DNA of 64,000 bases from Saprospiraceae bacterium. Its GTDB lineage: Bacteria > Bacteroidota > Bacteroidia > Chitinophagales > Saprospiraceae. Both the position numbers and the translations under genes were made by a program. The notes below the pieces were generated by a model. It had not been told where the DNA came from and ran no database searches. It was given only the letters and a program-made list of their open reading frames with translations. Positions 1 through 22,570 of this stretch are shown here, piece after piece (the first letter of the stretch is position 1; each line of letters begins with the position of its first letter). Location: assembly GCA_020627535.1 (NCBI GenBank), contig JAHDGU010000001.1, positions 164,670-228,669 of the forward strand, in the 5' to 3' direction.

Positions 1-3000
1 AACCCTTGATCATCATAACAATCCAGGAGGGACTCGGCTTGATCCGATTGAAAGCTTGCTGTGCCTTGGATTGTATCTCCACAGCTCACACGTGTAGCAG
101 TCTTACACTCTGACCCGGAGAGCTCGTAGGCACCGATATCCACATACTGATCCATGATGCGGAATGAACCTTGGAGGTCCGTCTCTACGTCTGACGGAAT
201 CGCATCATTGTTGCCCTGATTGATGGCAGGTGAGCCTGTGGAGAGGCGAAGATCTCCTGTGAGCGTATCTAAGAAGAGTGGATCAGCGTCAAGATTATTC
301 CCGCCGTCAGTGACATTGGGAGGCATGATGACCATTCCATCTTCTGTGTCATCTTCCAAGATGGAATATGCTATGGTGACACTTTCTGATGATGTACTAG
401 CGATCTGAGCTCCAGAACTATTTGGGGCAGTATTTCCCCAGAAAATTGATCCCTGAATATCCAAGGAGCTCATACCTTCAGAACTAATGGCACCTCCTTG
501 TTGAGAGGCCATGTTTTGTGAAAAACTACAGTTGATAATTTCGTGATCATTCTGGCCTACGCTTCCTGTACTAAATATTGCTCCACCGTTGGCACAACTA
601 TTTTTGTAAAAAGCACAGTTGATCATCTCCGTAGAGCAACTTCCTGTGGAGCCCCAGTTATATATAGCAGCTCCTGCCAGGCTTGTTTCGTTTTTTGTGA
701 ATGCACAATTCAAAATTCTTGTGCTATTATTCCCCAAAGAAGCTCCATCGTTGAAAATACCAGCGCCAAAGATTCCAGAATTGCTGCTGAAAGAACAATT
801 GGAAATCGTGGGACTGCAAATGTTTCCTCCTTCTCTACCTCTCGTGTGGATGCCTCCCCCGGCACTTTCCGGGAAGGGGCCATCGCAATTCCCTCCTCTA
901 AAGCTGAAGCCATCCACCACGCAGCTCGAGTCTATATTTCCACGCACACTTTCACCATGGATGATCATGATGTGATAGCTATTGTCAGTGCTATCCCCGG
1001 TGACACCTATATCTCCTGAGAGTATGGTCTCATGTGCACGGAAGTCTCGATCTGCCCGAGCTGTCTCTGATCCATCAAAGCCTCCATAGATGGCAAGATT
1101 CTTTGGGATATAAAAAGTCTTGTGTCTGTCACTGGCAGGTAGAATTCCCAAACTCACGGTATCCGTCGGAAGATATGTCCCCTCTGCCACCCATATCTCC
1201 CCTGCGAGACTATCACACTCACAGGCGAGGTCGATAGCGTCTTGCAGATCTCTGAATGCACCAGACCAGATATTGCCGTGCTCAGGACCAGTCGCATCGA
1301 TATCTACGAGCAGGGCATTTTGCGCGCCGGGACAGAGATTTTCGTATGCACCCATGTCTACGGTATCTCGTATGATCCGAGGACTGCCTGCAAGATCGGT
1401 CGTGATGCCATCTGGAATGCTATCATTGTTCCCTGCATTGATGGCAGGGCTACCTAGCGTCAGACGCAGATCGGTGCTGTCTCGGAAGAGCGGGTCGCTA
1501 TCTAGATTGTTACCGCCGTCGATGACATCAGTCGGGACTCCACCTCCTATGATGGAGTGGCTGAGAGTGGTATGGTTGAGTGATGAGCTCTCATAGATTT
1601 CGTTTTCTAGGTTGGCTTCATTCTCCCAGAAGATGCAATTGCTGATAGTGATTGAATCTGTTACAGAATTGTAAATAGCCCCTCCATTAATGACAGCCAG
1701 ATTTTTTGAAAAACTACAATTGGTGATTGAGGCGTAGCATGCATTATTATATATCGCTCCACCAATATTGGCCTTGTTATTCAAAAAGACAGAGTTGCTC
1801 AATTCATATCTGGTAGAAGCTGTATTCCAGGCGTAGATTGCGCCGCCATCATTTGAGACTTCATTCTTCAAGAATGAGCAGTTAGCGATCTTGGCAGAAG
1901 TTTCACCTAATCTGCCATCTAGAAAGATTGCACCGGCATACCGGCCTTGATTTTCTCTAAATGTACAGTTGGCAATGGTCGGATTACAGACATTCCCTGC
2001 ATTTCGTCCTCGCACATATATCGCTCCTCCAGCATAGGCAGGATTGGTGCCATTACATAGGCCATGCTCAAATATAAATCCGTCGATCTCACAGCTCCTA
2101 TCGATATTGCCTCGCTCCAGCTCCCCATGGATCAGCATGATATGATAGCTATTGTCAGTGCTATCCCCAGTGACGCCGATGTCTCCCGAGAGTATGGTCT
2201 CATGCTCTCTCCAGTCTCTCTGAGATCTGGCATACTCTGTCCCGTCAAATCCACCAAATAGCTTGACATTCTTTGGGATGTAAAATGTCTTGTCTCGGTC
2301 TGTAGCAGCGACATCTGGATTGAAAGTGAGCGTCGGCAGATAGGTGCCTTCTGCCACCCAGATCTCACCCACCAGAATATCACAGTCGCAGGCGAGCTCT
2401 ATGGCGTCTTGTAGGTCTGTGATGGCATCGGACCATCGAAGGCCATCGTCATTACCTGTGGCATCTATATCTACCAATAGCCTTGAACCAGTGCCAAGTG
2501 GACAGAAAAACTCATAAGCACCCATGTCTTGTACTTCGTTGATCATTCTTTTTCTTCCTCGGATGTCTGTGGGCTCAGATTGATCTATATTGGTCCCAGT
2601 GTTGAGACAAGGACTTATGTACTGCAGGCTGTAATCACCTCCTCCGACAAATCGTGGATTCTCAGAAATATTTCCGTTGCTACCATTGGTCAGACCGCTC
2701 CCAGTATATTCTTCTAGGCTATTATGATGGCCCACTGTTATATTGCCTCCACCCGCGATATCTGAGGGCGTGCCATTGTCAAGGTTGTTATAAAAGATGC
2801 AGTTGATCAGTGAGTCAATATTGGCGGCTTTTTCTAGGGCTCCACCCGTTCCATTGGACTCATTATCGGCGAAAGTGCAGTTGAATATATCCATGCTTCC
2901 CACCTCATGTGCCAGTGCTCCAGCTGTGGTGCCAGATGTATTCCCAACAAATAGACAGTTGGTAATACGATTGCTATCTGCACGGCTATTGACTGCACCA

Positions 3001-3530
3001 CCGACGATGGCTGATCTATTGCCCCGGAAGCTGCATCGGTTCATGAACAGCTCTGTGCCCTCGTTGAGTCGGATGGCTCCTGCGAGGAATGAGGAGTTAT
3101 TCTCGAAGTTGCAGTCCTTGAGTATGAGAGCGTCCGCTCCAGTGGTAATTATCGCCCCTCCAAATCCTGTCGCAAGGCTTGTATCACCGCCATTAGAAAA
3201 GGAAATTCCAGTGAGTCGTAACTCTCCGCCAATATGATTGATAAATCTGCTGTCACGATCGACATCCTGCGAACCATCGACGAATGTGAGTCCTGGTCCA
3301 TTGCCCAATATAACCAGACTCCGGTTGATGGTGATCTGACCACTCGTCAAGAAGATGGTGTCCCCATCCAGAGATGTATCAAATCGTATGGTGTCTCCAC
3401 TACTTGCAGAATTGATGACATCTCGTAGACTACCAGTGCCACTGTCATTGAGATTGATGACTGTATCCGCTTGCGCGAAAATGCAAAGTGCGGTGAGGCT
3501 AAGTGCTAGGGTGAAAATGGTCCTTTTCAT
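1..3530 (-). CDS. Giant secreted right-handed parallel beta-helix repeat surface protein. 5' partial: the start ATG is at 3530 and the C-terminus lies beyond the window start.
   Basis: I translated the minus strand myself. The open frame runs from 3530 down to position 1 with no stop, which is why it is absent from the ORF track. The N-terminal signal peptide reads MKRTIFTLALSLTALCIFAQA. There are dozens of NxxFxxN / GGAIY / NCxF beta-helix rungs. Two about 390-aa modules are internally duplicated: DIDATG...EIWVAEGTYLPT...TFYIPKN...HETILSGDIGVTGDSTDNSYHIM(L/I)IHGE, encoded at roughly 950-1250 and 2130-2430. Confidence 0.7.
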   Translation of the reverse strand, partial: MKRTIFTLALSLTALCIFAQADTVINLNDSGTGSLRDVINSASSGDTIRFDTSLDGDTIFLTSGQITINRSLVILGNGPGLTFVDGSQDVDRDSRFINHIGGELRLTGISFSNGGDTSLATGFGGAIITTGADALILKDCNFENNSSFLAGAIRLNEGTELFMNRCSFRGNRSAIVGGAVNSRADSNRITNCLFVGNTSGTTAGALAHEVGSMDIFNCTFADNESNGTGGALEKAANIDSLINCIFYNNLDNGTPSDIAGGGNITVGHHNSLEEYTGSGLTNGSNGNISENPRFVGGGDYSLQYISPCLNTGTNIDQSEPTDIRGRKRMINEVQDMGAYEFFCPLGTGSRLLVDIDATGNDDGLRWSDAITDLQDAIELACDCDILVGEIWVAEGTYLPTLTFNPDVAATDRDKTFYIPKNVKLFGGFDGTEYARSQRDWREHETILSGDIGVTGDSTDNSYHIMLIHGELERGNIDRSCEIDGFIFEHGLCNGTNPAYAGGAIYVRGRNAGNVCNPTIANCTFRENQGRYAGAIFLDGRLGETSAKIANCSFLKNEVSNDGGAIYAWNTASTRYELSNSVFLNNKANIGGAIYNNACYASITNCSFSKNLAVINGGAIYNSVTDSITISNCIFWENEANLENEIYESSSLNHTTLSHSIIGGGVPTDVIDGGNNLDSDPLFRDSTDLRLTLGSPAINAGNNDSIPDGITTDLAGSPRIIRDTVDMGAYENLCPGAQNALLVDIDATGPEHGNIWSGAFRDLQDAIDLACECDSLAGEIWVAEGTYLPTDTVSLGILPASDRHKTFYIPKNLAIYGGFDGSETARADRDFRAHETILSGDIGVTGDSTDNSYHIMIIHGESVRGNIDSSCVVDGFSFRGGNCDGPFPESAGGGIHTRGREGGNICSPTISNCSFSSNSGIFGAGIFNDGASLGNNSTRILNCAFTKNETSLAGAAIYNWGSTGSCSTEMINCAFYKNSCANGGAIFSTGSVGQNDHEIINCSFSQNMASQQGGAISSEGMSSLDIQGSIFWGNTAPNSSGAQIASTSSESVTIAYSILEDDTEDGMVIMPPNVTDGGNNLDADPLFLDTLTGDLRLSTGSPAINQGNNDAIPSDVETDLQGSFRIMDQYVDIGAYELSGSECKTATRVSCGDTIQGTASFQSDQAESLLDCYDDQG

Positions 3531-3607
3531 GAGGGTATTTTATGATTGTTACAAAGTTGGAATCGTGAAGGAGTCATGTCAACTACATGATGATGTGGTG
3601 GTTGATG

Positions 3608-3649
3608 GTTCGTAGTTCAGAGTTCGTAGTTCAGAGTTCAGAGTTTCTC
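3608..3649. repeat. Tandem heptamer array GTTCGTA GTTCAGA GTTCGTA GTTCAGA GTTCAGA GTTTCTC
   Basis: Read directly. It lies in the divergent intergenic region between the beta-helix gene start (3530) and the response-regulator start (3784). Confidence 0.8.
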
Positions 3650-3729
3650 CATGCCTGAAATACGTTGACCTTAATGGAAAATGGCTGATGAGACTTTGGA
3701 AAGAAACTCAATCACACAATCAGTCGCCG

Positions 3730-3747
3730 ACTACATGATCATGTAGT
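3730..3747. promoter_or_regulatory. Perfect 18-bp palindrome ACTACATGATCATGTAGT (CTACAT-N4-ATGTAG), 37 bp upstream of the response-regulator start
   Basis: Read directly. Related copies lie at 3583-3598 (CTACATGATGATGTGG) and 7139-7154 (CTACATGATGATGTAG). Positions 3579-3596 and 7136-7153 share an identical 18-mer, TCAACTACATGATGATGT. Confidence 0.6.
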
Positions 3748-3783
3748 TGCAGCTCGACTTGAAGCGCTGTACCTTGGTACTTC

Positions 3784-4425
3784 ATGGAAGAGATAGCCGT
3801 TGCCATTATAGAAGATGATCCCGTGATCAGAGCCAGCTTGGTCAAGAGTGTGGAAATGTATCCTGCGATGAATCTGGTCTTTGCCGCTGGAAGTGTAGAG
3901 GATGCCCTTGACCATTTGGATGACAATCCTTCTGACATCCCAGATGTGGTCATGATGGATATAGGTCTGCCTGGCATGGATGGCATCTCTGGGATACCAC
4001 AGGTCAAGGAACGTCTGGAGAAAACCAATATCATCATGCTCACCACCTATGAAGAGCAAGAAAAGATATTCGCGGCGCTCTGCGCTGGCGCCTGCTCCTA
4101 TATTTCTAAGCGTACATCTCTCAAGCAGATCATGGATGCCATCTTCACCGTGTATCGCGGAGGTAGTTACATGTCACCTTCTATAGCGCGCAAAGTCGTC
4201 GAGCACTTCAAGCCGATCCAAGCCGTCAATCATACGGAGAAGCTGTCAGATCGGCAACTTCAGATCGTCGAGCATCTCAGTGATGGCAAGAGCTACAAGG
4301 CGATCGCTGATGTGCTTAAGATCAGTATCGATACGGTAAGATTTCACATCAAGAAGATCTATAAGCTCCTTGAGGTCAACACCAAGCTGGATGTCATCAA
4401 TCTGTATCGAGATGGTAAGCTCTAG
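3784..4425 (+). CDS. NarL/FixJ-family response regulator (REC domain plus LuxR-type HTH)
   Basis: It has an N-terminal receiver domain (DD...D54-like MMDIGLPGMDG, then ...T...K) and a C-terminal LuxR HTH (LSDRQLQIVEHLSDGKSYKAIADVLKISIDTVRFHIKKIYKKL). Confidence 0.9.
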   Translation: MEEIAVAIIEDDPVIRASLVKSVEMYPAMNLVFAAGSVEDALDHLDDNPSDIPDVVMMDIGLPGMDGISGIPQVKERLEKTNIIMLTTYEEQEKIFAALCAGACSYISKRTSLKQIMDAIFTVYRGGSYMSPSIARKVVEHFKPIQAVNHTEKLSDRQLQIVEHLSDGKSYKAIADVLKISIDTVRFHIKKIYKLLEVNTKLDVINLYRDGKL

Positions 4426-6755
4426 GGATTGACCAAGAAGCTAGCGGAGATTTTAAATCCTCCATCCATCTTATATTCAAAAGATCCACCGCACTCTTCG
4501 GCTCGTTGACGCATGCTTTGAAGACCAAGTCCAGAGGTCTTGATTTGTTGTGGATCTGGCTTGCCATTGTCTTGGATGGTCAGGTGTAGCATAGCACCTT
4601 CATCCTTGATTATGGCCTTGATTTCCGATCCGCCGCTGTGCTTAAGTGCATTGGTGATGGCTTCCTTGTAAACTAGATAGACGTTTTGTCGAGTCTTGGG
4701 ATGGATTTTCCTATGCTCTTTGAGCTTGCTTCTCAGGCTGATACTCTGATGGCTGAGATTGTCGCTCTCCGCGGTAAAGTCTCTCATGCGATCGATGAGA
4801 TCCGAGGTGTTGTCTTTGCGAGAGTCAATCGCCCAGACTGTGTCTCGCATGCTTTGCATGGCTTGACGGCTCATCTTGGCCAAGTTTTCTGTGGCTGCCT
4901 TGTCTTTTTCACTACTGAAGTCGTTGAGCAACTCTGACTGCATGGCTAGACCTGTCAGCGTGGAGCCGACCTCATCATGCAAGTCACGCGAGAGCTGAGA
5001 TCTGAACTGCTCTCTCTCTGATGCTCGTTGCTTATTGATGCGCTGTCTTTGGAGTTGATTTCCGAGATAAACCAGCAGCCCAAAGAATATCAGGGTGGCG
5101 ATCGTCAGCCAGCGCCATAGGCGTTTTTGACTACTTTCTTTTTGGCTCTGGAGCTCAAGACTGAGGATCTCCTTATCTTGCTCCGCGGTCTTATATTTGG
5201 TCTCCCACTCAGTGATGGCTTGCGTGCGCTCAGATCGATACATGCTATCGCGGAGTATAGCATAGTCTTCTAATGCTTGAGATTGGGCTCTGGGATTGTC
5301 ATAGCGCTTGTAGAAGCTACGCATAGTCTTGAGAGCGAGTAGCTGATTTTCCACATTGCCTTGCTCCTTGCTCATCGCATATGCCTGCTGCAGCTGCGCT
5401 TCGATTTCTGCCAGTGAGACAGGTACATTTTCAGTCTTGGCACTTTTATCACCGTCGCTTTGGTCGTATAGATCTGCGTAAAGCTCAGCCAGATTGATGA
5501 GGATCGCAGCTTGCTCGGGCTTCAGGCTAAGCTCGATGGAGGATGCCAGTGCATCTTGCAAGATCACATATGCTTCTTGGTGTCTCTCAAGAGAGATGAG
5601 ATCTTGACCAATTGCTTGATTGATTTCTAGAACGAGCTTTTTTTGCTGGAGTGGAGTTGCAAGTTTTTTGGCCTTGAGGTGAGATTGGAGTGCTTCGCTG
5701 TGTGCTGTCTGCGCCCGATGACAGTTGCCGATGCGTAGAGCATTGTATGCTTGTAAGAATTCATACGAGAGCTCTTCGGCTATTGCATTTGATAGACCAA
5801 AGCTCTCCATGGCCGACGGATAATCCTCCAGATCATACTTCACAGCGCCAATATTGTGATGCGCTAGCGCTGCACTACGTCGATTGCCTAGTCGCTCCTT
5901 GATCTCGAGGGACTGATAGTAGTACTGAAGTGCCTGGTCATACAGGCCTTGAGTGTGAGCTATATTCCCCAGATTATTAGTGACGACGGCAATCTGTGTT
6001 TCGTGATCGACCAGCATTGCAAGATCCAGTGCCTGGCGATAAGACTCGTATGCTTCTTCATATCTGCCAGCACTTCGATGGAGTCGCCCTTGTGTGCTGT
6101 ATGCTGAAGAGACCGCGGTAGTCATCTCATGCGACATCTCATTTGCACGAAAGTGCAGTGCTCGATCCAGTACCCCAAGTGCAGAATCAGGCTTACCATC
6201 ATCTCTGAGTTGCTGTGCTTGCTCTACAAGTGTGTAAATGATATTGGCGCTATCGTTAGTATTCCGATAGATCATTAAGGCAGAATCTGTCAGGCTTTGA
6301 GCCAAGGAGTGTTCTCCGCGCTCCTTGGCGAGCTCGCCAAGGCCCAAGAGAGCTTTGCCTTGGAATACTGTCAAGCCACTAGTACTTGCCATGTCGAACA
6401 AGACATAATACATCGACCCCGCCATCTCGACTTCTCCAAGCTGCACCAGTCGACCTGCCGAGAGGTGAGTCAATCTATGGGTACAGCTATCTCCCGTACA
6501 TTTTTTTCGGGCTTCCGCCAAAATGACCTCAAGGTCCTCTGGAAATCGAGTCTTGCCAATGAGTCTCGTGAGGGACTCTTCCACATTGACCACTTCTTCA
6601 TCTTGATATGCTGCCCAGTGATCCTTAAATGTGATTTGTCCTGGAGGCGCTTGTGCGTGAGTCACAGCCAGAAAAAACACCTGACAAAAAATGACGACAA
6701 CAAGATGCGCTGGTCGGAAGAGGGGTAATAGGAGAGTGACTTTTCTCCTGATCAT
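4422..6755 (-). CDS. TPR-repeat sensor histidine kinase (HisKA_3 plus HATPase_c, NarL-partner class)
   Basis: A signal peptide is followed by a long TPR-like region, one transmembrane segment (WRWLTIATLIFFGLLVYLG), an H-box (LHDEVGSTLTGLAMQSE) and a C-terminal ATPase domain. It converges on the response-regulator gene with a 4-nt tail-to-tail overlap. Confidence 0.85.
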   Translation of the reverse strand: MIRRKVTLLLPLFRPAHLVVVIFCQVFFLAVTHAQAPPGQITFKDHWAAYQDEEVVNVEESLTRLIGKTRFPEDLEVILAEARKKCTGDSCTHRLTHLSAGRLVQLGEVEMAGSMYYVLFDMASTSGLTVFQGKALLGLGELAKERGEHSLAQSLTDSALMIYRNTNDSANIIYTLVEQAQQLRDDGKPDSALGVLDRALHFRANEMSHEMTTAVSSAYSTQGRLHRSAGRYEEAYESYRQALDLAMLVDHETQIAVVTNNLGNIAHTQGLYDQALQYYYQSLEIKERLGNRRSAALAHHNIGAVKYDLEDYPSAMESFGLSNAIAEELSYEFLQAYNALRIGNCHRAQTAHSEALQSHLKAKKLATPLQQKKLVLEINQAIGQDLISLERHQEAYVILQDALASSIELSLKPEQAAILINLAELYADLYDQSDGDKSAKTENVPVSLAEIEAQLQQAYAMSKEQGNVENQLLALKTMRSFYKRYDNPRAQSQALEDYAILRDSMYRSERTQAITEWETKYKTAEQDKEILSLELQSQKESSQKRLWRWLTIATLIFFGLLVYLGNQLQRQRINKQRASEREQFRSQLSRDLHDEVGSTLTGLAMQSELLNDFSSEKDKAATENLAKMSRQAMQSMRDTVWAIDSRKDNTSDLIDRMRDFTAESDNLSHQSISLRSKLKEHRKIHPKTRQNVYLVYKEAITNALKHSGGSEIKAIIKDEGAMLHLTIQDNGKPDPQQIKTSGLGLQSMRQRAEECGGSFEYKMDGGFKISASFLVNP

Positions 6756-6852
6756 AGGACTACTGGTTCAGACCTACAAGATAGTTTTATTATTTGGAGT
6801 GCGAAACGGTGTTCTTATTCCTCAATTGGCCAGCCCGATCCTGCGAAGGCGA

Positions 6853-7086
6853 CTATGAAGCCAAAGAATACTTCGCCAATAGATTTTGTAAAAGGGCTTC
6901 GCGTACGATGCCTGCCACATTGCGTACCTGTAGTTTTTGCATGATCTTCTTGCGATGCGACTTGACGGTCTCGTCACTGATGTAGAGTCTCTGTGCGATT
7001 TCCTTGGTGCTACACTCTTGGACAATGAGCTCAATCACCTCTGATTCTCTTGTGCTTAGGCGGGTTTCGTGATTTTGAATTCTCAT
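6853..7086 (-). CDS. Stand-alone LuxR-family HTH transcriptional regulator (77 aa)
   Basis: The protein carries the LuxR HTH motif LSTRESEVIELIVQECSTKEIAQRLYISDETVKSHRKKIMQKL. It lies immediately upstream of the TPR kinase on the same strand. Confidence 0.75.
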   Translation of the reverse strand: MRIQNHETRLSTRESEVIELIVQECSTKEIAQRLYISDETVKSHRKKIMQKLQVRNVAGIVREALLQNLLAKYSLAS

Positions 7087-7138
7087 GGTGATTTTCTTTT
7101 CTCAGGATAAAGGTTTGATTCTCTGACTTGTCAATCAA

Positions 7139-7154
7139 CTACATGATGATGTAG
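7139..7154. promoter_or_regulatory. CTACAT-GATG-ATGTAG inverted repeat about 50-60 bp upstream of the orphan LuxR gene start (7086, minus strand)
   Basis: Same motif family as 3730-3747. It lies in the promoter region of the LuxR-then-TPR-kinase transcription unit. Confidence 0.55.
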
Positions 7155-7518
7155 CGAGCGCATCAGTCCTTGACGCATCTGACGCTGAAGTCTGCCCGAA
7201 GTGCGGTTGGGAAAAACTGTCTAATGTCAATCGTGTTGAAAACGGCGAATGGTGCAAGATAGATAGCACCAGGAGCATAGGTATGCCAATAGGACGCTAG
7301 TAAGAGATCTCCAAAGAGTCCTGAAACCTCCATCTCGGGTTATAAATCCAGAAGAGTCTGTTGCATTAGTTCTGGAATAGATTTGTCCAAAACTATCCTA
7401 GCCAAGTTCAGTTCATAAGAGCTTCTGATGCATCGATTCTCATGGTCAGACCGACGGTTTTTGAAGCATACATTTTATCCCCATCTATGTCTGTAGAGAG
7501 TCAAGAAAAAGCGGCATC

Positions 7519-10068
7519 TTGATGCTATCTTTAGAAGTAATGAGATACGCTATTGTTGCTATTTTTCTTGCCTATTTTTCTGACCTCAGTGCTCAAGAAG
7601 AACTGCTTGTTCATCGACTCAATCAAGAGCTTGCTTCAGGAGTTTGCTCAGATTTGCAGTTTGAAGTTTCTTCCTATTACCAGAATTCCAAGAGCAAGAT
7701 CCAATACTTGTATGCCTATCCCTTTATTCAGGGCATACGAATTGCCAATCACCAAGTCCAGTTGGTCGCTGACGAAAAAGGGCAGTTGATTCACAGTCAT
7801 CTTCTCACGTGTGATTGGGATGATTCTCAGTCAGAGCATCTGAGAGGTATGGAAGAGTCTCTGTGGCAATATATCCAGTCGAAAGAGTATGATGTCGATC
7901 TGAGCGCGTATTCAGCTCAGCTTTCACAGGCCAAGTGGGAAGTTGAGAATCCCTCGGAGATCCTAGAGGAGATGCAGGCAGAAAAGGTCTATTATTTGAC
8001 ATCGACAGAAGTACGAGACTCAGACGGGTCTAGTTCTTTGCAATTTTCATTGAGAGCGGCCTACGAAATCCATATTCGTGAAAGCTCAGGAAATCACTGG
8101 TGGAACGCGATCGTGAGTGCTAGCGATGACGAAATTCTGCAAGATCAAGATCTTGTCTTGCACTGTGAGTTTCATCATGTCAAGGCTCCGAATCATGATT
8201 GTGGCCATGATCATTCAGAAAATCTTCAGGCGACGATCCCCAATTCATACAGAGTTCTACCCCTATATGTGGAATCACCATCACACGGTGATTTTACCTT
8301 GGAGGTGGATCCAGCAGATTTGGACGTAAGTCCCCTAGGATGGCATGATGACGGTACGACGAGCTACACGGATACACGGGGCAACAATGTGGACGCCTAC
8401 GAAGATCGAGATGCCAACAATGCTCCTGGATACAGACCAGATGGTGGAGCAGACCTTGAGTTTGATTTCTCTTTTGATCCCAATAGCCCTCCGATCAACA
8501 GTGAGGATGCGATTATCACCAATCTCTTTTATTGGAACAATCTGATGCATGATGTATGGTATCGATATGGTTTTGATGAGGCATCAGGAAACTTCCAAGA
8601 GGACAATTTCGGCAATGGCGGGATAGCAGGAGACTATGTAAGAGCAGAAGCTCAAGATGGATCCGGTACCAATAATGCCAACTTCAGCACACCGACAGAT
8701 GGTGGCAATCCTAGGATGCAGATGTTCCTCTGGACTGGCGTGGCCCAGCTCGAGATTACCAATCCTTCGAGCAGTGCAGGATTCTACAACTACAGCGCAG
8801 CAGGATTTGGCCCGTCAATCAATAGCAATATATCTGGTAACATCATCCTAGCATATGATGCCAATCCGGACAGTTCGCAAGCTTGTGGTGCAATTGTAAA
8901 TAGCGCGGAGGTCAATGGAAATATCGCCTTGGTAGATCGTGGAGCCTGCTTTTTCGAGACCAAGGTCAACAATTGTGAAGCTGCTGGTGCGATCGCTGTC
9001 ATTGTATGTAATAATCAGCCGGGTGCAGGGACATTCGGTATGGGAGGTGTGGATACGATACCTGACCCAGGCATTCCGTCTATAATGATCAGCTACGAGG
9101 ATTGTCAGACTATCCGGATGGATCTTGACAATGGACTGGCCGGGACGATTGAGAGTGAATCCATTGCTTTTGACTCGGATCTAGACAATGGGATTATCTG
9201 CCACGAATACGGGCATGGCATCAGTATACGTTTGACGGGTGGTGCGGGGACCAATAGCTGTCTAGGCTCTGCCGAGCAAATGGGTGAAGGCTGGTCAGAT
9301 TACTTCGGTCTTGTGATGTCCCAAAAGCCTGGTCATACTCACGATCTGCCTCGTGGTATCGGTACCTATGTGCTCGGGCAGGATACACTGGGATCTGGAA
9401 TCAGGCCGGCAGAGTACTGTACGGATTTTGCAGTGAATGACTTTACCTACGACGATATCGACCAGGTCTCTCAGCCACATGGTGTAGGATTTGTCTGGTG
9501 TACCATGATCTGGGATATGACATGGGCACTAGAGAACCACTACGGCTATGAGCCCGATATCTTCAATGATTCTAGTAGTGCTGGGAATATTGTTGCTTAT
9601 CACCTAGTAATGGAAGGACTAAGACTACAGGCATGCAATCCTGGATTTGTGGATGGAAGAGACGCTATATTGATGGCAGATTCGATTCTCTACAACAAGG
9701 AACACGAATGCATCATATGGAATGCGTTTGCACGACGTGGACTAGGCTTTAGTGCAGATCAAGGCTCAGCGAATAATCGGAGCGACGGGGCGGAAGCTTT
9801 TGACCTGCCAACTGGCTGTGATGCTTTGAGCTATGAGGAGCTATTTGTCATTGGTCCCAATCCTTGTGATGGCGACAATCTAGTAATTGAAGATCCCATC
9901 ACGATGGATTCTACTTACAGAGCCAAGTTTTTGATAGAGAGTAATGCCACCATCGGCTCTGGTCTAGATATTATCTATCAAGCTGGGCAGTCGATAGAGC
10001 TAGATACCAATTTTACGGTAACTACTGGTGCCTTGTTTGAGGCGAGGATCGATCCTTGTCAGGATTGA
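7519..10068 (+). CDS. Secreted M36 (fungalysin-family) zinc metalloprotease with FTP propeptide, PA-domain insert and a probable T9SS C-terminal domain
   Basis: The signal peptide MRYAIVAIFLAYFSDLSAQ is present. The zinc motif HEYGHGISIRLTGG...MGEGWSD matches the fungalysin HEYTHG...RLTGG...GEGWSD pattern. A PA-like segment reads NGNIALVDRGACFFETKVNNCEAAGAIAVIVCNN. The last about 80 aa look like a Por secretion tail. Confidence 0.85.
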   Translation: MMLSLEVMRYAIVAIFLAYFSDLSAQEELLVHRLNQELASGVCSDLQFEVSSYYQNSKSKIQYLYAYPFIQGIRIANHQVQLVADEKGQLIHSHLLTCDWDDSQSEHLRGMEESLWQYIQSKEYDVDLSAYSAQLSQAKWEVENPSEILEEMQAEKVYYLTSTEVRDSDGSSSLQFSLRAAYEIHIRESSGNHWWNAIVSASDDEILQDQDLVLHCEFHHVKAPNHDCGHDHSENLQATIPNSYRVLPLYVESPSHGDFTLEVDPADLDVSPLGWHDDGTTSYTDTRGNNVDAYEDRDANNAPGYRPDGGADLEFDFSFDPNSPPINSEDAIITNLFYWNNLMHDVWYRYGFDEASGNFQEDNFGNGGIAGDYVRAEAQDGSGTNNANFSTPTDGGNPRMQMFLWTGVAQLEITNPSSSAGFYNYSAAGFGPSINSNISGNIILAYDANPDSSQACGAIVNSAEVNGNIALVDRGACFFETKVNNCEAAGAIAVIVCNNQPGAGTFGMGGVDTIPDPGIPSIMISYEDCQTIRMDLDNGLAGTIESESIAFDSDLDNGIICHEYGHGISIRLTGGAGTNSCLGSAEQMGEGWSDYFGLVMSQKPGHTHDLPRGIGTYVLGQDTLGSGIRPAEYCTDFAVNDFTYDDIDQVSQPHGVGFVWCTMIWDMTWALENHYGYEPDIFNDSSSAGNIVAYHLVMEGLRLQACNPGFVDGRDAILMADSILYNKEHECIIWNAFARRGLGFSADQGSANNRSDGAEAFDLPTGCDALSYEELFVIGPNPCDGDNLVIEDPITMDSTYRAKFLIESNATIGSGLDIIYQAGQSIELDTNFTVTTGALFEARIDPCQD

Positions 10069-16125: not shown

Positions 16126-16196
16126 AATACCGAACTCGGGGGATTGCGCCCATCTGATTCCACTCAGTTCTTTGCGTCATAAATCAAAGCTACACT

Positions 16197-18485
16197 ATGA
16201 TGTATTCTAGATTCAATCTCATTCTTGCCTTATCACTCTTGACCATTGGCCTTTCTGCACAGGCTATCGACGACGCTGAGATCCGTGGTGACGGTATCGT
16301 CGTGCCTGCTGTGGATCGGCTGGCGGTCGTTGCCCCATCCACTGGTCAGCTCGTCTTCGATGTCAATACGCTCAGCTACTGGATGCACGATGGTAATGTG
16401 TGGCGGGCTGTAGGAGACAATATTGTCGGTAACATGATTCAAGACGCGGATGGAAGCACCAGTGTGCAGACAGAACCTGGCGGACTAGAGCAAGTCCTGA
16501 TCGAGGTCGATGGTCGAGATCGGTGGAGGTTTTTGGGACATGCGCTAGAGCCTCTCATTCCCAGTAGTTCCATATTCATGGGACAGTCAGCAGGTGCCGC
16601 TAGTTCTGATACAGCTTACAACAATGTCGGCATCGGAAATTTCTCGCTGATCTCGGTCAGCTCAGGAAGATGGAATGTAGGCATCGGCCATAATGCCCTG
16701 AGCGACAATACATCAGGAGAAAAAAATGTTGCCATCGGTTCTTCCGCAATGCTTGGCAACAAGGCGAGCTCCGACAATGTCGCCATAGGTAATAGTGCAT
16801 TACTCTCGGTCGACTCCTCACAGTTCAATGTCGCTATCGGCTCTTATGGACTCCATAGCCTAGACAAAGGTCTTCGCAATGTAGCCATCGGAACCTCTAG
16901 CCTCTATGAATCCGAGACAGGAAAGCTCAACACCTCCATCGGCTATGCTGCAGGACACAATACCCTCGGAGATGGCAATGTATTTCTCGGCCACGAGGCT
17001 GGTTTCAATGAACTAGGAAGTAACAAACTCTACATCGCCAACTCCAATGCCGATAGCGCCGATGCGCTGATCTACGGTGACTTTTCCAGTTCTGAACTCT
17101 ACATCAATGGAGATCTGCAGTCTGATCAGTTCACCACAGATCAGATCACGACCACTACCATAGACGTCGACGACAAACTCACCGTCAAGAGCGACTCTCG
17201 CCTGTTTGGTCATCTCTTTCTACACGCCCTCCAGGGCCTAGGGCAAAGTGGCACAGCCTATATCCAAGCCAGAGATCACACTGCTGCTACGAGTGTTGGT
17301 CTACAGTTTCGCGTGACGGACAATGGTGTGGTTGATGACGCCCTCGCGATCAATAAAGATGGTCAAGTCCTGTTTCAGAACAAGGAGATCTACTTCGGTA
17401 CGAGTCTCTTGATTCACACCACAGGTAGCAACAACTTCTTTGCAGGATTTGCTGCTGCCCCTTCAGCCTCGGGTTCCTCCAATACAGCGGTCGGTTCGCA
17501 AGCAGCTCAGAGCCTTTCTACGGGCTCTCAGAATTCAGCAATCGGCCGGCTTGCAGGTCAGGACCTCTCCAGCGGATTTGGAAATACACTATTGGGTTTT
17601 TCTGCGGGTAAAGACTTGACGACCACGACTGGCAACACCATGATCGGTAACAATGCAGGTGCTTCGATCAATAACGGGGGCTCCAATACCATCATCGGTA
17701 GCCAAGCAGGATGGAACACCAGCTTTTCGTCAAGCAACACCTTCATAGGATTTGATGCGGGCAGGTACACCGCTGGAAGCAAAAACACATTCCTTGGGAC
17801 CAATGCTGGTGAGACCACTTCTGGTGGTCCCAGCTACGATAATAGCATAGCTATCGGATACAGTGCTGTGGCCAATTGCCATAACTGTGCAGTGATCGGC
17901 AATGATGGATCAGAGGATGTTAATCTCGGTATCGGTATCTCGGCTCCTCAGTCCGTCATCCATGTCAAGCAGCGCAACTCAGGCACAGATCGCGGTATCC
18001 GTATAGAAGACACCGATGGGACATACTGGAATACCTACATCGACGCATCTAATGATTACAACTTCGCTCACGACGGCACACTTCGTGCTTACATACAGGA
18101 TGGTGCTGGTGCCTTTGTCATCACTTCTGATCGCAGCGTCAAGACAGCCATCAGCTCTGTCGGAGACGTATTGCCACGGGTGATGGGGCTTTCGCCCAAA
18201 TGGTACAGATACAACAACATGTCACCCGATCAACCCAAGGTCATGGGCTTCATCGCACAAGAAGTGGAGGAGCAGTTTCCTGGCATCGTACGCCAAAAAG
18301 GAAAGCTCAAGACCCTCGCATACGATGACTTTGCCATCATCAGCATCAAAGCCATCCAAGAACTCAATGACAAGGTCAACGAAAAGGATTCAAGGATCAC
18401 AGAACTAGAAGAGCAAAATGAGGAATTGGCCAAGCGACTAGAGAGATTGGAAGCGTTGGTACTCAGTGATCCATTGACTGACTAA
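16197..18485 (+). CDS. Secreted tail-fiber-like protein: YadA/Hep_Hag-like NxAIG repeat region plus a C-terminal peptidase S74 intramolecular-chaperone auto-processing domain
   Basis: The Sec signal peptide is MMYSRFNLILALSLLTIGLSAQA. There are more than 20 repeats of N(V/T)AIG..AL. The C-terminal SDRSVKTAISSVGDVLPRVMGLSPKWYRY...VMGFIAQEVEEQFPGIV...LAYDDFAIISIKAIQELNDKV...ELEEQN matches the endosialidase / tail-spike CIMCD pattern, including the Ser-x4-Lys dyad. Confidence 0.7.
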   Translation: MMYSRFNLILALSLLTIGLSAQAIDDAEIRGDGIVVPAVDRLAVVAPSTGQLVFDVNTLSYWMHDGNVWRAVGDNIVGNMIQDADGSTSVQTEPGGLEQVLIEVDGRDRWRFLGHALEPLIPSSSIFMGQSAGAASSDTAYNNVGIGNFSLISVSSGRWNVGIGHNALSDNTSGEKNVAIGSSAMLGNKASSDNVAIGNSALLSVDSSQFNVAIGSYGLHSLDKGLRNVAIGTSSLYESETGKLNTSIGYAAGHNTLGDGNVFLGHEAGFNELGSNKLYIANSNADSADALIYGDFSSSELYINGDLQSDQFTTDQITTTTIDVDDKLTVKSDSRLFGHLFLHALQGLGQSGTAYIQARDHTAATSVGLQFRVTDNGVVDDALAINKDGQVLFQNKEIYFGTSLLIHTTGSNNFFAGFAAAPSASGSSNTAVGSQAAQSLSTGSQNSAIGRLAGQDLSSGFGNTLLGFSAGKDLTTTTGNTMIGNNAGASINNGGSNTIIGSQAGWNTSFSSSNTFIGFDAGRYTAGSKNTFLGTNAGETTSGGPSYDNSIAIGYSAVANCHNCAVIGNDGSEDVNLGIGISAPQSVIHVKQRNSGTDRGIRIEDTDGTYWNTYIDASNDYNFAHDGTLRAYIQDGAGAFVITSDRSVKTAISSVGDVLPRVMGLSPKWYRYNNMSPDQPKVMGFIAQEVEEQFPGIVRQKGKLKTLAYDDFAIISIKAIQELNDKVNEKDSRITELEEQNEELAKRLERLEALVLSDPLTD

Positions 18486-18804: not shown

Positions 18805-21800
18805 TCATTCATCCAAAGGCATTACTAGTCTTATACGATAACCATCTTCTCGGTCAATCTTCAGAGTGCCTCGGATCTGCTCAGCGCGCAAGCGCATATT
18901 GCTGATGCCGAGACCATCTGTGCTGAGAAGTTCGTGCTTGGAGCCATTGTCATGGACAGTATAGGATAGTCGAGGGCCTTCTGCTACTAGACGGATGGCT
19001 ACTGCATTTCCGTCTGAGTGCTTCTGGATGTTGGTGATGGCTTCTTTGTGGATGAGATAGAGCTGCTGCCGCAGGGTGGGGCTCATGCTTTTTGAGCTAT
19101 CGATACCTGTGACCTGAAAGTCTACGGCCCAGCGCTGTTCTGGCAGTCGCTTTTGGGCGAAAGCTCGCATCCGATCGATGAGATTCTCGTACTTGTCTTT
19201 GCGAGAATCTATGAGCCAAACGGTATCGCGCATCCTCTCCATCGCATCACGACTCATCTCATTCATCTCGGCGAGTGATTCCTTGTCTTCTTCTTTGGCC
19301 GTCATGCTCATGATCTCGGACTGCATGGCCAGACCTGATAAGATGCTACCTACATCATCATGCAGATCACTGCTGACTTTGACGCGCCACTGATTGAGCG
19401 CTTTTTCCTTATTCACTTTTGCGCGAAAGCGCGCATAAAATACACCAAATACGATCCCACAAGCAAGTAGCAAGCCCAGCGCCTGTACCCAGCGACGATG
19501 ATACCAGACTGCAGGTCGATAAAAATCAATATGATGCTCAGCGTACTGCTCACCCTGTGGATCTGCACTGGCTCTGAGATGCACAGTGAATGCCCCTGTA
19601 GGTAGTGAGATCAATTCCAGCTCCGATCTCGTATCGTATCGACTCCAGCTGCCTTCTTCGCCATTGAGACTGTAAGCGTACCAGCGATCGTCAGTGATGC
19701 TGGGAGAGCTGTACCTCATGGTCAAGAGTTCGTCAGATGGGAGTAGTTTGATGGGCTCAGTCCGAGACATGAGATCCGAAAATACACTGCGGTACTCATC
19801 GAACTTACTGTTGTAGATACTCACATTGTGCACAAATAGATCGGATATACTTTCCTTCGGCGAGGCAAAAGGCAATATATCTGGATTGATGCGGAAGAGC
19901 CCCTCTACGCTCCCAAGATACGTATGTCCATCGCTTGCGCTAAAATGTGCATTGCGATTATATTCTACTTGACTGAGAGGATGACCATCGGGAAGTCGCT
20001 CGATGAGACCAGTGTCCATGCGATAGATCAATAGTCCTTGCCCCGTACCAAGTAGCAGCCTAGAGTCTGCCAAAGGATGGATGAAATAAATGGCGTCGTG
20101 TACATCTTCACCGTCCTGCTTACGGGCAAATCCCGGCAGGAGCTCACCTTGATTTTCTCCTTCTCGGATGACAGCTAGGCCAAAGTGTGTACCGTAATAC
20201 AGATCACCTTTAGCTTGATGCAGGGAGGTGACAATCGTATTTTTTCTGGTCAGCCCTAAGTCCTCTCTGATCATTTGCTTGGTCATATGTCCACGACGAT
20301 CTAGCCAGTGGATCCCTCGCAGGTCTGTAGCTAGTATGAAGGCGCTCTCGCTTTGATCCTGATTGCGAATGAGTGCATTCCCTATGATCGGTTTGTCAAA
20401 GAGGGCTTCTTGGATAATGGTATCCCTCATACTCTCGAGCTGTGTCTTGAATATCCTGGCATTGCGATCATAGGTCCAGAGAGTGTCCTTTTCGTGGAGA
20501 TGAAGGCTCATAGACTTCTTGAGAGACCCAGGGAGGCGACTCAGCTGGAGGTCGCTGAGTCGATACCTGTAGTTGTCCCAGATGAGATGTGTCGCAGAAG
20601 TCGACAGGCTAAAGGCTTCATTGTAGGTGTTCTGAGGATTCAGACGCAGTGACCTAAAGCTCTCTGTGCCAGCTTCGCATACGCTGACATCGGTATAGTA
20701 GCTCACATATACATTTCCCTCGGAGTCCTCACATATCTGTCGCACGCTCGGATATGGCTCTGTCTGCGATACTGGAACTCGCCAGTCATCTAGAGAAGCT
20801 GCCACTGGCTCTGCCAGATATAAGGTACTATTGAAGACTAGAATGTAGGAATCAGCACCATAGCTGATGACCTGCTGCAAGGTCTCATTCCTTTTTTTGA
20901 GATCAAAGCGATCATTGAGTTCCGCGAGCTCAGATGTATAGTCCTCTGTGGTTTTTGTAGTGCTATTGTACAGCCAGACGCGCTGTTTGAAGTCACTGAG
21001 CCAGACCTCTTGTGGAAAAGTGAATGTGTTGTAGCTGCTTCCTTCAAATTCAGCGTTTTTGATCTCGATAGGTTTGACGATTTGGCGGATCGGATCTACA
21101 CTGAGGCTCTTTTCTTCGCTCGCGCGCATGATGTGCAAGCCGGGTTGATTGGTCAATTCAAAGCTGCCATAAGCTGGCAACGTCATCAGCTCGTTGCCCA
21201 TGCGATCTAGAGCGATCAAGGAGAGATCCTTGAAGATCCAAATAGTGTCCTGGAGGACTCTCGGTGGAGAGGAACTTCCAACTGGTAACTTCGTCTTGAA
21301 GAGTAGCGAGGTATCCTCAGTCATCTCATATACATGGCCAAGGTCGGACTTCCTATGACGGGCAATGAAATAGGATTTTCTTGTGGCAATATCCTGGCAC
21401 AAATAAAGCAGAGCGAATTTGTCCTCCAATCTTATTTCCTTCATCACCTGCCGTCGATCTGTGTCCCAAAGACAGAGCTTGTAGTGGAAGTTGATGTTGT
21501 CAAAGAAGATCAGCCATATCCTTGAGCTATCAAGGCCTGCCATCGACAAGAATCCATAGCCGTCTTGATTGATTTGCAAGGTGTCGCCTGCTGCCGTGAA
21601 GTTGTATCTCGTCGCTCGCTGACCGTCAAAGCAGATAAGATTTTCTTGTGCAGCATACCACAGGAAACCATGACGGTCCCAGTGTGGAGGATTGGACGAG
21701 ACGATCCAGAGACCTTCATCCTCAGGACTACTGAGTAGGCTGATATTATAACTGAGCTCTTCATCATTCTGCGCGTGTGCAATCTCTGGGATCAGAGACA

Positions 21801-21876
21801 AGACAAGTAGGATCAAGATGTAAGGACTGAGTCTCATGCTGTAAGAAGCGGTGTGAAGATATAGTGCAGTTCCCAA
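18805..21876 (-). CDS. Sensor histidine kinase with large periplasmic beta-propeller / Y_Y_Y-type sensor domain (HisKA_3 plus HATPase_c)
   Basis: A signal peptide is followed by about 750 aa of propeller-like repeats, a transmembrane segment (VQALGLLLACGIVFGVFYA), an H-box (LHDDVGSILSGLAMQSE) and an ATPase domain. The C-terminus is paralogous to the kinase at 4422..6755. Confidence 0.8.
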   Translation of the reverse strand: MGTALYLHTASYSMRLSPYILILLVLSLIPEIAHAQNDEELSYNISLLSSPEDEGLWIVSSNPPHWDRHGFLWYAAQENLICFDGQRATRYNFTAAGDTLQINQDGYGFLSMAGLDSSRIWLIFFDNINFHYKLCLWDTDRRQVMKEIRLEDKFALLYLCQDIATRKSYFIARHRKSDLGHVYEMTEDTSLLFKTKLPVGSSSPPRVLQDTIWIFKDLSLIALDRMGNELMTLPAYGSFELTNQPGLHIMRASEEKSLSVDPIRQIVKPIEIKNAEFEGSSYNTFTFPQEVWLSDFKQRVWLYNSTTKTTEDYTSELAELNDRFDLKKRNETLQQVISYGADSYILVFNSTLYLAEPVAASLDDWRVPVSQTEPYPSVRQICEDSEGNVYVSYYTDVSVCEAGTESFRSLRLNPQNTYNEAFSLSTSATHLIWDNYRYRLSDLQLSRLPGSLKKSMSLHLHEKDTLWTYDRNARIFKTQLESMRDTIIQEALFDKPIIGNALIRNQDQSESAFILATDLRGIHWLDRRGHMTKQMIREDLGLTRKNTIVTSLHQAKGDLYYGTHFGLAVIREGENQGELLPGFARKQDGEDVHDAIYFIHPLADSRLLLGTGQGLLIYRMDTGLIERLPDGHPLSQVEYNRNAHFSASDGHTYLGSVEGLFRINPDILPFASPKESISDLFVHNVSIYNSKFDEYRSVFSDLMSRTEPIKLLPSDELLTMRYSSPSITDDRWYAYSLNGEEGSWSRYDTRSELELISLPTGAFTVHLRASADPQGEQYAEHHIDFYRPAVWYHRRWVQALGLLLACGIVFGVFYARFRAKVNKEKALNQWRVKVSSDLHDDVGSILSGLAMQSEIMSMTAKEEDKESLAEMNEMSRDAMERMRDTVWLIDSRKDKYENLIDRMRAFAQKRLPEQRWAVDFQVTGIDSSKSMSPTLRQQLYLIHKEAITNIQKHSDGNAVAIRLVAEGPRLSYTVHDNGSKHELLSTDGLGISNMRLRAEQIRGTLKIDREDGYRIRLVMPLDE

Positions 21877-21940: not shown

Positions 21941-22570
21941 ATGAAGCTACACATCATAGAAGACAATCTCAAGATCAGAGCTCACCTCGAGACCTTTCTT
22001 GGCCATCAAGAGGATATCGCCTGTGTGCAAAGCCACACAAGTGTAGAGTTTTTCTTGAGTGCTGTGGATTCTGGTCAAGCCAAGCCAGATGTGATTCTAT
22101 TGGATATCGGGCTTCCTGGGATGTCTGGTGTAGAAGGTATCCCGGAGATCACTCAGCGACTTCCCGAGACAGATATCATCATGCTCACCACCTATGAGGA
22201 GGAAGAAGTCATACTCAATGCGCTCTGTGCCGGTGCTCATGCCTATCTCAGCAAGAAGAGTAGTCTGCAAGAGATCCATACTGCGATCAAGGTGGTACGG
22301 GCTGGAGGAAGCTATATGTCGCCCAATATTGCTCGCCAGATCGTGAGACATTTTGGCGGAAGCCGTACACCTAAAAAAGCCGAAATCCTCACCGAACGCC
22401 AGCTCAAAGTCCTCAAACTACTTGTGGATGGATTGACCTACGGAGCGATTGCCAAAGAGCTTTTTATTTCTGCAGAGACGGTCAAGACGCATGTCAAGAA
22501 CATCTACAAGAGTCTCCACGTGAGCAACAAGGCCGAAGCCATCCAGAAGTATATGCGAGGAGAGATCTAG
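21941..22570 (+). CDS. NarL/FixJ-family response regulator (REC plus LuxR HTH), paralogous to the regulator at 3784..4425
   Basis: The receiver motif LLDIGLPGMSG...IIMLTTYEE and the HTH TERQLKVLKLLVDGLTYGAIAKELFISAETVKTHVKNIYKSL are present. It is divergent from the kinase at 18805..21876. Confidence 0.9.
   Translation: MKLHIIEDNLKIRAHLETFLGHQEDIACVQSHTSVEFFLSAVDSGQAKPDVILLDIGLPGMSGVEGIPEITQRLPETDIIMLTTYEEEEVILNALCAGAHAYLSKKSSLQEIHTAIKVVRAGGSYMSPNIARQIVRHFGGSRTPKKAEILTERQLKVLKLLVDGLTYGAIAKELFISAETVKTHVKNIYKSLHVSNKAEAIQKYMRGEI

Follow-up and report, generated by a model that had tools for sequence, protein, structure and literature searches.

A two-component regulatory locus lies at one end of a 64,000-nucleotide stretch of DNA from a Saprospiraceae bacterium (contig JAHDGU010000001.1, positions 164,670 to 228,669; hereafter the window), where a short palindrome recurs in front of the genes for two LuxR-type proteins and a giant surface protein. 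We propose that this palindrome is probably the operator of the response regulator encoded beside it. The regulator gene (3784 to 4425, plus strand) encodes a 213-amino-acid protein with a receiver domain (REC, PF00072, 75.3 bits) and a GerE/LuxR-type helix-turn-helix (HTH) domain (PF00196, 44.8 bits, residues 153 to 205), whose closest solved structures are VraR, ChrA, NarL, and DesR. E10, D11, D59, and K109 of the receiver domain are invariant in 40 family members, V185, R186, H188, and I189 are invariant in the family alignment, and the recognition helix (SIDTVRFHIKKIY) is almost unchanging. Convergent with this gene, the minus strand carries the gene of a 777-amino-acid sensor histidine kinase (4422 to 6755; PF07730, i.e., HisKA_3, and HATPase_c), which runs from an N-terminal hydrophobic segment through a TPR region of ~500 amino acids and one more transmembrane segment to the HisKA_3 and HATPase domains. 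The kinase gene stands 97 nt downstream, on the same strand, of a gene (6853 to 7086) for a 77-amino-acid stand-alone GerE/LuxR-type HTH protein (PF00196, 62.8 bits). By Pfam, the 213- and 77-amino-acid proteins consist of REC plus GerE and of GerE alone, respectively, neither having an autoinducer-binding domain. Receiver domain, GerE/LuxR-type HTH, and a nearby HisKA_3 kinase are all features of the NarL/FixJ class. On the other side of the regulator gene, positions 1 to 3530 (minus strand) hold the 5' part of a gene whose giant product, secreted and of the beta-helix type, carries PMP repeats as well as a choice-of-anchor Q domain and has 1353 amino acids in full (in L019).

The first-pass annotation of this DNA had described a perfect 18-bp palindrome ahead of the response-regulator gene, a second copy near the GerE/kinase unit, and a third, imperfect copy facing the beta-helix gene, and all three are indeed present. 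The perfect palindrome, ACTACATGATCATGTAGT at 3730 to 3747, has its last base 36 nt before the regulator ATG (3784), and its core, CTACATGATCATGTAG (3731 to 3746, plus strand), is our predicted operator B. Predicted operator C, CTACATGATGATGTAG at 7139 to 7154 (minus strand), is perfect in the 6-N4-6 form. The first gene behind it is the GerE gene, whose ATG (7086) lies 52 nt downstream and towards which it reads CTACATCATCATGTAG. Predicted operator A, CTACATGATGATGTGG at 3583 to 3598 (minus strand), has one mismatch, also lies 52 nt upstream of an ATG (3530), that of the beta-helix gene, and reads CCACATCATCATGTAG in that direction. Thus, CTACAT-N4-ATGTAG occurs exactly at B and C and with one mismatch at A. 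An 18-mer, TCAACTACATGATGATGT, which had been reported as identical in two places, is indeed found twice (3579 to 3596 and 7135 to 7152), the earlier placement of the second copy at 7136 to 7153 being off by one.

This density is far above expectation. With at most one mismatch, the pattern has four matches in the window versus 0.15 expected, a number reached in 0 of 100 dinucleotide shuffles, and two exact matches versus ~0.005; with up to two mismatches (six matches versus 2.6 expected), it is too loose to be significant. A weight matrix of 20 columns, derived from 20 sites including A, B, and C, scored these three at 32.2 (the top score), 28.6, and 26.3 bits, respectively, and they were the sole matches above 14 bits in the 64 kb. 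The fourth one-mismatch match (19350 to 19365) reached 13.5 bits and everything else stayed below 10 bits. We rejected this fourth match as an operator and regard it as coincidental, since it lies in the coding sequence of a histidine kinase gene, where CTnCATGATGATGTn encodes LHDDV, the HisKA_3 H-box. The same coding coincidence arises in kinase genes of other loci (L022 to L028), and such matches would inflate the count in a genome-wide search for the motif. An open reading frame (ORF) overlapping site A (3355 to 3615) also reads QLHDDVV. A two-mismatch match at 16190, over the ATG of an S74 gene, scored 8 bits and was taken as chance.

When 21 sites were aligned on the palindrome and turned towards the downstream gene, a common promoter layout appeared. 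TTG or TTT directly follows the palindrome at nearly all of them, and 20 nt after this TTG comes a TAnCTT(T/G) box, the first base of which lies 31.5 bp from the palindrome centre at all aligned sites, the L042 sites fitting as well. This layout resembles the sigma-A elements of Bacteroidota (-33 TTG/TTTG and -7 TAnnTTTG, ~20 nt apart), the transcription starts being predicted from this consensus only. Since the -7 box covers -12 to -5 in Flavobacterium psychrophilum (PMC9723704), the palindrome would occupy about -51 to -36, with its centre at -43.5. In the window, the predicted elements of the regulator promoter (plus strand) are a TTG at 3747 to 3749, abutting operator B, and TACCTTGG at 3770 to 3777, at the same 31.5-bp distance from the centre of the operator. 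On the minus strand, the promoter of operator A would comprise a TTG at 3582 to 3580 and the -7-like box CAACTTTG at 3559 to 3552, and that of operator C a TTG at 7138 to 7136 and the -7-like box AACCTTTA at 7115 to 7108, which predicts transcription starts at about 3547 and 7103, respectively.

The first-pass annotation had stated beforehand that lack of conservation in orthologous loci would count against the site. Among loci collected through the many homologues of the regulator (52 to 86% identity), the palindrome is kept in the same promoter register in 11 further distinct loci, where it precedes the regulator gene (L021, L023, L026, L029, L032, L035, L036, L037, L039, and L042) or an ORF just ahead of it (L041). 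The small GerE gene has an orthologue in four of these loci (L023, L029, L032, and L039), and in all four the palindrome precedes it as well; there, the GerE orthologues are 54 to 68% identical and head operons with a beta-helix/PMP homologue or proteases, the kinase gene coming after. In L023, L032, and L039, the cargo proteins whose genes follow GerE are 27 to 30% identical over ~770 amino acids to the beta-helix protein of the window. Other genes preceded by the palindrome are two S74/YadA-head genes in Winogradskyella (L035 and L036) and an AraC-hydrolase gene in L039 and L042. In L035 (Winogradskyella pulchriflava), sites stand at 9926, 10680, and 13860. The family consensus is a-CCACAT-CATC-ATGTGG-TTG, most relatives having CCACAT-N4-ATGTGG. 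For the degenerate form YACAT-N4-ATGTR, the count is 22 over 219 kb of family loci versus 0 over 278 kb of unrelated control loci. The closest comparison is with L021, where the regulator is 86% identical: operator, TTG, -7 box, and start codon are kept, with only 5 of 20 bases conserved in the 20-nt spacer. This comparison is a classical phylogenetic footprint of the predicted operator and promoter.

Orthologues of the kinase, 35 to 40% identical over ~650 residues, stand beside the regulator homologues, and the convergent arrangement of regulator and kinase genes is kept in L023, L026, L029, and L032. In genome contigs, a search with the kinase gave only distant TPR matches of at most 30% identity, and a word-indexed protein database gave only the kinase itself above about 30 to 33% identity, an insensitive search given that orthologues at 35 to 40% exist. 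Hence, for long, repeat-rich proteins, a negative result of such a word-indexed search is no proof of absence.

Which protein of the locus would recognize the palindrome is indicated by residue 187 of the regulator, the x of its TV(K/R)xH motif, which aligns with Val189 of NarL in a register anchored by gap-free alignments to VraR and LiaR. In NarL, Lys188, Val189, and Lys192 contact bases while His190 contacts the backbone (PMC10853779). Regulators with Phe187 (window, L021, and L042) go with the half-site CTACAT, T being found at position 2 in 11 of 12 half-sites, whereas those with Ser, Thr, or Asp187 (8 loci) go with CCACAT or, rarely, TGACAT, with T at position 2 in none of 34. In a neighbour-joining tree without support values, the Phe187 regulators form two separate branches, one inside the group with TPR kinases and the other forming a sister branch to a Ser-type regulator whose kinase is of the Reg_prop type, which suggests two independent switches. 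The stand-alone GerE protein, on the contrary, has Ser at the equivalent of residue 187 in 5 of 5 loci, whichever the half-site, including the window with its CTACAT. Moreover, five loci (L026, L035, L037, L041, and L042) have sites and no GerE gene within 10 kb. Both observations favour the REC-containing regulator as the binder. Thus, of the operator shared by LuxR-type regulators and surface protein that the first-pass annotation had put forward, the sharing is supported by the conservation and the density of the sites, while the likely binder, as we infer, is the REC regulator and not the orphan GerE protein.

Altogether, these findings make it likely that the palindrome serves as operator for the NarL/FixJ-type regulator encoded next to it, which would activate the beta-helix gene and the GerE(-kinase) unit as well as its own gene. 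We propose a model in which the TPR-domain kinase senses a signal, probably periplasmic, and phosphorylates the regulator. The phosphorylated regulator would then dimerize and, at three promoters, bind the 16-bp inverted repeat that immediately precedes the -33 TTG and has its centre near -43.5. The three promoters would be its own, resulting in positive autoregulation, that of the small GerE gene, from which transcription probably reads on into the kinase gene, and that of the beta-helix surface protein gene. Binding most likely activates, as a NarL dimer does at -43.5 of E. coli yeaR, where a 16-bp 7-2-7 NarL site acts through a non-canonical class II mechanism (PMC10853779). Nevertheless, several points weigh against this model. 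Binding by the regulator, activation in preference to repression, and the pairing of kinase with regulator are deduced from sequence, as are the transcription starts, from consensus, and a site adjoining the -33 element could also repress. The -33 element is other than TTG at some sites (e.g., in L037, in L042, and at the GerE site of L032). The covariation of residue 187 with the half-site rests on the two presumed switches in a tree without support values. Since the loci were collected through regulator homologues, the regulator is present in them by construction, and in the five loci with sites and no nearby GerE gene, such a gene may lie elsewhere in the genome. Finally, the sequence covered from the source genome amounts to ~71 kb, which limits what can be said of the regulon size and the genome-wide background.

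The same regulator could instead repress from the same operator, by hindering the polymerase, with negative autoregulation and a surface protein kept silent until the regulator is released. That the palindrome abuts the predicted -33 element would suit such a role, and the near-consensus -7 boxes of several other loci (TATCTTTG and TATTTTTG) might need no activator. However, the palindrome stops short of the -33 and -7 elements and leaves both uncovered while its register with them is exactly kept, as an activator contacting the polymerase would require; the -7 boxes at the cargo and GerE promoters of the window (CAACTTTG and AACCTTTA) are weak, which fits activator dependence, and NarL activates from exactly this distance. 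We therefore regard repression as unlikely. Bare LuxR-type HTH proteins bind inverted repeats as dimers, and the stand-alone GerE protein, being of this type, might be what recognizes the palindrome, either unaided, or competing with the regulator, or combined with it in a mixed dimer. Its gene always has a site upstream, it is 54 to 68% identical within the module, and it shares the helix pattern TVKxH(R/I)KK with the regulator. Still, its constant Ser does not covary with the operator, sites persist in the five loci where the GerE gene is missing within 10 kb, and the HTH domains of GerE protein and regulator are only 42% identical over 50 residues, all of which makes this a very unlikely solution.

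It is still harder to believe that the palindrome binds no protein at all, being an RNA hairpin or terminator, a relic of a mobile element or of promoter duplication, or chance, a possibility to which we give hardly any weight. The common 18-mer and equal ATG distance of sites A and C do show a local duplication, and site B can form a hairpin (-11.5 kcal/mol, z = -2.2). The hairpins at A and C, however, are no better than those of shuffled sequence (z = -0.2 and -0.3), none of the three is followed by a T run, a search of Rfam gave no match, and the sites lie upstream of the predicted transcription starts. Moreover, sites are kept next to regulators only 52 to 69% identical while the flanks have diverged, which excludes recent duplication or chance. 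As for the likeness of A and C, one promoter drives GerE, cargo, and kinase together in other loci, and the simplest history of site A looks like a move of the cargo gene to the other side of the regulator gene with a copy of the site C promoter.

The system with which activation by the regulator can best be compared is NarX/NarL of E. coli (yeaR and ogt). Both have a REC plus LuxR-type HTH regulator and a HisKA_3-type kinase; both operators are 16-bp inverted repeats, ours being readable as a 7-2-7 site, CCACATS-AT-SATGTGG; both operators lie just upstream of the -35/-33 element with the centre at -43.5 (predicted here); and both recognition helices follow the pattern K/R-x-H-x-K, the x of NarL being the base-touching Val189 (PMC10853779). 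In contrast, the NarL heptamer TACYYMT is unrelated to our half-site C(C/T)ACAT, NarX has a periplasmic P-box with HAMP where the present kinase has a TPR-array sensor, and NarL serves respiratory targets whereas surface or secreted proteins are concerned here, from promoters of the Bacteroidota type (-33 TTG and -7 TAnnTTTG). The regulator is not NarL proper, scoring 94.6 bits against the NarL equivalog model NF007935 (cut-off, 250). By analogy, FimS/FimR of Porphyromonas gingivalis, also a member of the Bacteroidota, is the nearest functional counterpart, in a comparison that covers the kinase sensor, the cascade, and the controlled genes. In FimS, as in the present kinase, membrane segments flank a periplasmic TPR sensor on both sides, and the FimR cascade, which works by way of the gene heading a surface-structure cluster, parallels the place of GerE as first gene of the cargo operon. 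The controlled genes differ, being fimbrial in P. gingivalis and coding for a beta-helix protein or proteases here, and the kinase is not FimS, reaching 53.9 bits against the FimS equivalog NF053520 (cut-off, 600) through the TPR region only.

Quorum-sensing-type regulators such as LuxR and TraR also carry a GerE-type HTH, bind as dimers to 16- to 20-bp inverted repeats near -42, overlapping the -35 element, and are often autoregulated. They differ by their autoinducer-binding domain; here, control would run through a phosphorylatable REC domain and a histidine kinase. As for the 77-amino-acid protein, GerE of Bacillus subtilis is likewise a stand-alone LuxR-type HTH (~74 amino acids), a likeness by domain, with no sporulation context in the present locus.

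While NarL/FixJ-class membership and the type of switch are conventional, the site of this regulator family seems to be previously undescribed. Full-text literature searches for the operator motif or for operators of LuxR-type two-component systems in Bacteroidota returned no description of it, and, to our knowledge, two-component regulators of Bacteroidota beyond the sugar systems of gut Bacteroides are almost unstudied. For a regulator family of Saprospiraceae, Lewinellaceae, and Flavobacteriaceae, our analysis thus supplies an operator and a promoter layout that can be put to the test, and it links this family to giant beta-helix adhesin-like, protease, and tail-fibre-like proteins. It also suggests that the activation geometry of NarL at -43.5 is used with the different sigma-A of Bacteroidota, and it provides a natural pair for the study of LuxR-type HTH specificity, with Phe187 facing T and Ser, Thr, or Asp facing C. 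A broader hypothesis, which we advance only tentatively and hold for doubtful as a whole, is that kinase (of TPR or Reg_prop type), regulator, small GerE protein, and secreted giant cargo together form a surface-cargo switch widespread in Bacteroidota, with GerE feedback and recoding by residue 187. The GerE protein, which lacks a REC domain and is always encoded first behind the operator, may feed back on this operator by competing for it, by entering mixed dimers, or by keeping the ON state independently of phosphorylation, and the exchange of Phe187 with Ser, Thr, or Asp may have recoded position 2 (T versus C) at least twice independently. If true, this recoding would insulate paralogous systems within one cell.

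Beside these findings, the predicted promoters show some minor features. The predicted transcription start of the regulator gene, at ~3782, lies ~2 nt before the ATG, so its mRNA would be nearly leaderless; leaders predicted for the regulator genes are similarly short in L021 and L037 and 16 to 25 nt long in other loci. In the regulator promoters, the box reads TAnnTTGG/C, with one T fewer than the sigma-A box TAnnTTTG (window, 3770 to 3777; L021, 64 to 71; L023, 923 to 930; L026, 9978 to 9985), and the GerE and cargo promoters have the form TAnnTTT(G/A). TAnnTTGG/C resembles motif SM5 (TAnnTTGY) of F. psychrophilum, for which an alternative sigma factor was suspected (PMC9723704). In L039, a fourth good site, TCACATGACCATGTGGTTG (3605 to 3620), stands in the intergenic stretch ahead of the GerE gene, in the orientation leading away from that gene; the site has no convincing downstream gene, and a 109-amino-acid product (3363 to 4036, plus strand) is called across it in L040 only.

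The window also encodes a second system, with a HisKA_3 kinase (18805 to 21876, minus strand) and a REC plus GerE regulator (21941 to 22570, plus strand), beside the gene of an S74 "chaperone of endosialidase" protein (16197 to 18485). This second regulator is 48% identical to the first one. We considered it as a binder of the palindrome and rejected it: its recognition helix, ETVKTHVKN, is different, and neither the pattern nor the weight-matrix scan of the window found a palindrome near its gene. The regulator that stands beside S74 genes in Winogradskyella belongs to the first family, and operators lie in front of those genes.

Elsewhere in the window, sorting domains of the type IX secretion system are encoded, which assigns the organism to Bacteroidota. 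Beyond operator C, an M36 protease gene (7519 to 10068, plus strand) starts 365 nt from the operator, across a 432-nt gap from the GerE gene. This gap contains a 56-amino-acid ORF (7163 to 7333, minus strand), without family match, that ends 9 nt from operator C and is also called as a gene in Logan assemblies. Operators A and B, the centres of which are 148 bp apart, flank a tandem repeat of the divergent intergenic region (3608 to 3645; GTTCGTAGTTCAGA repeated 2.3 times, or AGTTCAG 4.6 times).

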